From Escherichia coli (GTDB taxonomy: Bacteria > Pseudomonadota > Gammaproteobacteria > Enterobacterales > Enterobacteriaceae): a stretch of DNA of 1,800 nt. Where the stretch lies: NCBI RefSeq assembly GCF_003334355.1, contig NZ_QOWP01000080.1; one strand, written 5' to 3'. The notes under the pieces are model-generated. The model was not told the DNA's origin. It did no database searches and saw only the letters and a program-made list of their open reading frames with translations. Position numbers and translations under genes: made by a program. The first letter of the stretch is position 1. Each line of letters opens with the position of its first letter. This document shows, one piece after another, positions 1 through 1,800 of the stretch.

Positions 1-1800
1 GTCAGCCTGCCGTGACGGTCATACCGGTAAAGATAGTGCGCGTCACGGGCGATACGGTTATCCGGCCACATGCTGAGGGTGCTGTCCGGGTGCAGCTCCG
101 GGTCGGGCAGGCGGTTGCCCGCCGGGTCCGTGGCATACGGGATGCGGATATCCAGATTCGCTGCGGTGGTGTGAACGCCGGTCAGCCTGCCGGTGGTGCT
201 GTAGCTGTAACTCCGGGTCTGGCGCGGGCTGCTGATGCGGATGAGTTCGCCGTTGTCGTTCCAGGTGTAATCGCGGTCATACTGCAGGCTGTTCAGGTGC
301 TGACGCTGTAACTGCCCGGCAGGGGTGTAAGCGGTGGTGAGTTCATAACGACCGAAGCTGCGCAGCGTTTCCCGGTGCAGGCGGTCGCGGGTGAAATCCA
401 CCAGCGGTGTGTCGCCGAGCTTCATGCCTGCCAGCCAGCCGCTGCCGTAGGTCAGCCATTCCACGGCGGGCAGGCTGTCCGGTATACAGCGGTTCGCCAG
501 CCCCTGCGCGTTGTACGCATGTCTGGTCTCATGCTGCCAGAGCAGTGCTTCCGTCTCCGGGTGATGCACCGTCTGGCGCTCACCGGTCAGGCGGCCTTTC
601 TCATCATACCTGTAATGCACCGCCACCCGGTGCCCTTCGCTGATATGGCTGATGTCTGTCAGCCAGCCACGTTCGTCATACTGCCACCGCTCTGCGGTTT
701 CACCCTTCACGGTGCGGTGCGTGAGGCGGTCTGCTTCGTCATAGTGCCAGTGGGTGACCAGACCCTCATCCTCGCTGCGGATAAGTTTGCCGGTCAGGTC
801 GTGGTGATAACGCTGTGTGCGGCCGTCAAAGCCGGTTTCCTGTATCAGCCGGTCAAGTACATCGTAACGGAAGGTGGTGTGGCTGCCGTTTTCACTGGTC
901 AGGCGGATGACCCGTCCGGCAGCATCGTATTCCATACTGCGCGTCAGCCCGCCCTGCGTGGTACGGACGGCCTTTCCCCACGCATCGTACTGTGTCCCGT
1001 TTCTGCTGCCGTCCGGGGCAATGACGGCGGTCAGGTCACCGGCGATGTTGTATTCATACCGCGTTTCATGGCCCTGCGTGTCTTTCACGGCAATTAACTG
1101 TCCACGGCTGTCGTATGCGCGGTACTGACTCAGCCCTTCCTCGCGGTGCACCGCCGTCATCTGCCCGAAGCGGTCATGGTCATAACGGGTTACATAACCG
1201 GAACAGTCGGTGAAGCTCAGCAACTGACCGTAACGGCTCCACGTCATGGTTTTCCGGCTGCCGGTGGCATCTTCCGTTGCGCAGGGTAAGTCACTGTGTG
1301 GATTATCATAACGGTAGCGGGTGATATCGCCGTCAGGGGCAGTTTCCTGAATCAGACGGCCCAATTCATCATATTCCCGGCGCAATTCCAGCCCGTCAGG
1401 CCCGGTGGCTGACGTTAACTGGTTGTGGTGGTTATAGTAAAACGCCGATGCCCTGCCATCCGGCGTGGTTATGCGCGTGATGAGGCCCGTCACCACATCC
1501 GGGCTGTATTCTGTTGTCCGGCCTGCGGCATCCGTCTGTGTCCTGAGCCTGCCCACGGCGTCAAACTGACTCTGCGTGACGCTGCCGTCCGCGTGTTCCT
1601 TTTTCACCACCCGCTTCAGCCCGGCTTCGCCCTGCGTGTGCAGCACTTCACGGCGGTCCAGGCTGTCGGTGATGGTGATGTGGTCTTTCTCATACTGATA
1701 CGTGTAGCTTAAGCCTGCCGGGTTAAGCTGTTCTGTCACCCGCCCGTCGCTGTCGTAACGGTAACGGATTTCCGGCCGGCCCGTGTGACGGTGCGCCACC
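1..1800 (-). CDS. Rhs-family YD-repeat core protein (RhsA-D-like polymorphic toxin scaffold), internal fragment, partial at both ends; N-terminus beyond coordinate 1800, C-terminus beyond coordinate 1
   Basis: Seen in sequence: the reverse-complement frame whose first full codon is 1799..1797 (GTG) runs 599 codons to 5..3 with no stop; coordinates 2..1 are the start of the next codon. Translation begins [74 protein letters not shown] and ends [21 protein letters not shown]. It carries many YD-repeat motifs, e.g. [127 protein letters not shown]. Composition is GC-rich (35/60 and 40/60 G+C in two hand-counted lines). Established knowledge: this motif pattern and periodicity define Rhs/YD-repeat shell proteins. 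Paralog and species cannot be assigned without a database search. Confidence 0.92.

Follow-up and report, generated by a model that had tools for sequence, protein, structure and literature searches.

A window-spanning Rhs frame absent from the ORF list of 1,800 nt of Escherichia coli DNA

In the 1,800-nt stretch of E. coli DNA analysed here (the window), an open reading frame (ORF) listing at the default cut-off of 60 aa returns exactly five ORFs, all of them on the plus strand. The question raised by this locus is whether any of these ORFs is a gene, or whether the gene lies on the minus strand where the list shows nothing. An earlier note, made from the letters of the window alone, had argued for the latter, i.e. 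that on the minus strand a frame of 599 codons, beginning at base 1799, is open throughout, encodes a textbook Rhs/YD-repeat sequence and is missing from the list, and that the five ORFs on the plus strand are spurious.

An open minus-strand frame with an Rhs translation

Translation of the reverse complement of the window gave 599 codons and no stop in the frame that starts at base 1799. The complete codons run from base 1799 down to base 3, and the codons at base 1800 and at bases 2-1 are incomplete; the window thus holds an ORF fragment (3..1799, minus strand) that is open at both window ends. Each of the remaining five reading frames contains 6-33 stops. When the bases of the window were shuffled 2000 times, the longest open run had a mean of 171 codons and a maximum of 409 codons, and the probability of 599 open codons, as calculated from base composition, is ~1e-8. 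The GC content of the window is 0.612 and that of the minus frame is 0.63, 0.48 and 0.73 at codon positions 1, 2 and 3, respectively. The listing tool excludes ORFs that overrun either end of the window, and the Rhs frame is missing from its output because the gene extends past both ends. Both the uninterrupted frame and its absence from the list are therefore as the earlier note had described them.

The minus frame had a dN/dS of 0.195 in comparison with rhsD and of 0.29 in comparison with rhsC. Moreover, the differences between the window and rhsD are distributed 95/79/226 over codon positions 1/2/3 of this frame. We conclude that the minus frame is under purifying selection.

The translation matched the NCBIfam profile RHS_core (NF041261) with 1223 bits, and aa 2-599 were aligned to positions 356-959 of the 1261 positions of the profile. 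The curated cut-off of this profile, 2000 bits, is set for whole proteins; the fragment holds only 48% of the model and scores under the cut-off because the other 52% falls outside the window. The full-length proteins of the closest relatives, which are 99.1-99.5% identical across the window, score 2642-2648 bits. In addition, Pfam RHS_repeat (PF05593) was matched 12 times at i-E < 0.01 over aa 15-546, and the YD-repeat profile TIGR01643 was matched in four stretches (E 2.3e-38; 129 bits versus a cut-off of 15.8). Judging by solved homologues, this run of YD/RHS repeats (162..1757, minus strand) would form the middle of a beta-sheet shell. The tandem repeat matches that had been predicted are thus present, and the alignment to RHS_core over aa 2-599 bears out the description of the translation as Rhs/YD-repeat sequence.

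Part of this repetition is visible in the DNA. An exact 12-nt direct repeat, GTCAGCCTGCCG, is located at 1-12 and at 181-192; its coding-strand sequence, CGGCAGGCTGAC, specifies the G-R-L-T peptide motif that recurs in YD repeats. Otherwise, the window contains only short, imperfect repeat copies of 12-24 nt, which mirror repeated GRLTG / YxYD-type peptide motifs, and no tandem DNA array. A scan of the window against Rfam at a permissive threshold gave nothing credible; its sole match, to the archaeal C/D-box snoRNA sR32 (563-611, minus strand), reached 19.3 bits (E 0.022), the gathering score being 40, and was rejected as a chance match.

Position in the gene and relation to the E. coli rhs genes

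The window could be aligned to nt 1038-2837 of E. coli rhs genes with no gaps, and the DNA identity was 95.9-99.5%. The highest identity, 99.5%, was to an annotated RHS core gene of E. coli J3, which is the kind of high-identity enterobacterial Rhs core that the earlier note had expected to be found; it was followed by rhsB of BL21 (99.1%), rhsA and rhsB of K-12 (both 98.7%) and rhsC of K-12 (95.9%). The window is like E. coli RhsA, RhsB and RhsC (rhsABCF, clade I) in its GC-rich core, its YD-repeat content and its ungapped alignment. RhsD and RhsE (rhsDE) have the same architecture and repeat register, and 599/599 codons align with rhsD at 76.5% amino acid identity; however, nucleotide identity to rhsD is only 77%, in a gapped alignment, and therefore the window does not belong to the rhsDE subfamily. 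The rhsE remnant is 79% identical over its retained part only. The window thus shows what distinguishes clade I, i.e. near-identity to rhsA/B/C versus a divergence of ~22% for rhsD/E. In E. coli, the cores of clade I have expanded recently and hardly vary in sequence (Jackson et al. 2009, PMC2935791).

At least 80% of the window is present in 3896/5426 complete E. coli genomes, with a median of five places per genome. Among the 5426 complete RefSeq genomes of E. coli, no copy is 100% identical to the window and 73 records are at least 99% identical; the best match, at 99.5%, is annotated as 'RHS element core protein' or rhsB. The closest gene, that of J3, is flanked by ybfA/kdp and ybfC at the rhsC locus, and the closest copies occupy the classical rhsC (ybfA/kdp) and rhsB (nikR/yhhJ) loci.

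In an RhsA/B/C-type gene of ~1400 codons, the window corresponds to codons 347-945 (nt 1039-2835), and it lies entirely inside the YD-repeat shell. The start, the stop, the cleavage motif, the toxin and the immunity gene are all outside the window, as are the N-terminal and cleavage domains. In the full-length J3 protein, DUF6531 is found at aa 46-123 and PF03527 at ~aa 1143-1179; Rhs_assc_core (TIGR03696) is found at aa 1170-1247 in J3 as well as in BL21 rhsB, and the window stops at codon 945. The N-terminus of the J3 protein gave a weak, partial PAAR match (i-E 0.18), and its tip of ~150 aa gave no Pfam match. By the classical criterion, an rhs core has a GC content of ~62% in a genome of ~51% GC and is joined to an AT-rich tip. 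The relatives of the window have a GC content of 0.62 in the core and of 0.37-0.43 in the tip, and the GC content of the window agrees with that of the core. In the closest full-length relatives, a small ORF is located downstream of the rhs gene, and the gene that follows rhs in the relatives is ybfC, yhhH, yibA or ybfB. The annotation of the two closest relatives shows no gene for VgrG, PAAR or a chaperone at a distance of up to 8 kb.

Neither end of the gene is visible in the window, and K-12 carries remnants of this kind, i.e. the rhsE pseudogene of 2049 nt and the ybfO pseudogene of 1434 nt, the latter downstream of rhsC. The segment could in principle come from a similar remnant, i.e. an Rhs core that is truncated or orphaned. 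We consider this origin unlikely: the frame is uninterrupted for all 1797 nt, and the annotation of the listed full-length matches describes complete RHS core proteins. Moreover, only the last 652 nt of the window, read on the coding strand (1149-1800 of the reverse complement), have a counterpart in rhsE, and the window extends ~1150 nt further in the 5' direction than this remnant. In total, we conclude that the minus strand of the window almost certainly carries an internal segment of an RHS core gene of the E. coli RhsA/B/C type (clade I).

Of the nine positions that differ from the J3 gene, a mismatch map placed eight in a patch of 129 nt (303..431). In 655 E. coli records, the 166 nt at 285-450 have an identity of 99% or more, and in the 15 records listed the identity is 100%; the genes carrying the patch allele are annotated as rhsB, rhsC or RHS core protein, i.e. 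this allele is frequent among other Rhs paralogues. The window thereby differs from RhsA, RhsB and RhsC in being a mosaic, which is mostly J3-like and has another common allele at 303-431. A mosaic of known core alleles is consistent with gene conversion between paralogues, and at 99.5% identity, with most of the differences in an allele that is itself common in E. coli, the variation is within-species. An exact scan of the GTDB species representatives for the 166-nt patch allele gave no match. The patch contains one match to the Chi octamer, GCTGGTGG (398..405, minus strand), at positions that are without mismatch in 5/5 close paralogues. At least one Chi octamer was present in 22/200 shuffles (11%), which is not significant alone, and the Chi site was dropped as an explanation of the patch.

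In a separate exact scan of the GTDB species representatives, a conserved 80-mer was found only in two tiny contigs carrying the Rhs core alone. BMUD01000166.1 (544 bp), which is assigned to Streptomyces griseoloalbus JCM 4480, is 98.3% identical to the window; JAETOQ010000140.1 (2726 bp), from an Oscillospiraceae metagenome-assembled genome, is 97.6% identical to the window and 98.6% identical to K-12 rhsB. Both of these foreign contigs most likely represent E. coli contamination or mis-binning in public assemblies, and at these identities neither is the source of the window. An origin of the window outside Escherichia/Shigella, in an organism that had acquired the element or in a contaminant contig of a foreign assembly, is very unlikely and would leave the identity of the gene as it is.

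The plus-strand ORFs

Three of the five listed ORFs lie in the in-register antisense frame, i.e. those of 99 aa (12..311), 240 aa (375..1097) and 95 aa (1425..1712), and they end at the reverse complements of the sense TTA codons at 311-309, 1097-1095 and 1712-1710, respectively. The remaining two, of 78 aa in plus frame 2 (407..643) and of 84 aa in plus frame 1 (874..1128), are chance ORFs. Antisense stops arise only from the sense codons TTA, CTA and TCA, which make up six of the 599 codons of the window and 12-14 per 1230 codons in Rhs cores; because these codons are scarce, long open antisense stretches are expected in Rhs cores.

An NCBIfam scan of the five ORFs gave no family match, the sole weak match being that of 375-1097 (E 0.086), and the inspected records carry no plus-strand annotation; in the 25 records listed, RefSeq has no gene other than Rhs across the match. 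The ORFs also vary between paralogues. The start codon of 12-311 is lost in BL21 rhsB and in rhsD, and that of 1425-1712 is absent in rhsD; in rhsD, 407-643 has lost its start codon and contains an internal stop, and 874-1128 has lost its start codon and contains two internal stops. Finally, the in-register antisense frame had a dN/dS of 1.49 versus rhsD, whereas the sense frame had the value of 0.195 given above; versus rhsC, the antisense value was 1.04, and 375-1097 read as a gene had a dN/dS of 0.83. The five plus-strand ORFs are by-products of the GC3-rich coding frame and, as the earlier note maintained, spurious. That one of them is a real overlapping antisense gene inside Rhs cores is highly improbable even for the most plausible candidate, 375-1097, which is long and whose stretch, in K-12 rhsB as well as in rhsD (77% nucleotide identity), also begins with GTG and runs uninterrupted to a stop at the same position, but which is broken by an internal stop in 4/5 close paralogues, lacks a family match and plus-strand annotation in the listed records, has antisense dN/dS values against it, and is of a length that the rarity of the three sense codons leads one to expect.

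A putative toxin-enclosing shell and the meaning of this copy

In a sequence search, the fragment matched Tse5 (8cp6) over aa 2-570 with an E of 9e-68, and further matches to solved Rhs proteins were 7q97, 8qja-d, Tse15 (8uxt) and Tre23 (7pq5), the E values ranging from 9e-68 to 6e-25. The type VI Rhs effectors Tse5, 7q97, Tse15, Tre23 and 8qja-d (Salmonella bongori, Advenella) have the homologous YD-repeat shell region in common with the window. They are distant relatives by sequence and are linked to PAAR or VgrG; by contrast, the closest E. coli relatives of the window have the weak, partial PAAR match (i-E 0.18) and no vgrG within 8 kb. The teneurin-like structures 9ifo and 9pt5 likewise share YD repeats with the window (E ~4e-19). 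Teneurins and TcB/TcC, which are cell-surface proteins of eukaryotes and insect toxins of several subunits, respectively, differ from Rhs in context, delivery and domain set. The YD shell of teneurins and the cocoon of the insecticidal ABC toxin TcB/TcC follow the same enclosing-shell principle as Rhs.

On the model of the solved homologues, the YD repeats of the window would form the middle wall of a large beta-sheet shell that is hollow and that, in the complete protein, would enclose the variable C-terminal toxin domain. The aspartyl autoprotease of the Rhs-associated core domain, whose motif lies at the core-tip junction, would cut the toxin free, and a small immunity protein encoded just downstream would neutralise the toxin in the producer. 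Autoproteolytic release, toxin activity and immunity are known from the Rhs family, and the elements concerned are located outside the window. Type VI delivery into neighbouring bacteria is established for other Rhs proteins; for this subfamily, it may be proposed by analogy. The Rhs shell has been described as a container for the toxin (bioRxiv 10.1101/2024.02.26.582050). The near-identical GC-rich cores of 3.7 kb, at a median of five places per genome, also serve as substrates for homologous recombination, and the patch at 303-431 fits such a role. The name 'rearrangement hot spot' derives from the recombination of multiple near-identical cores (PMC2935791).

The gene family is already known, in the best-known host lineage, and the window is part of an ordinary copy. 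This copy leaves the understanding of Rhs proteins unchanged, and the window, which includes neither the toxin tip nor the neighbourhood, has no bearing on the delivery question of K-12-type RhsA/B/C. The value of the result is mainly that of a quality check on the ORF track rather than of biology: ORF lists that require a stop inside the window miss any gene that spans it, and in GC3-rich genes they propose long antisense ORFs instead.
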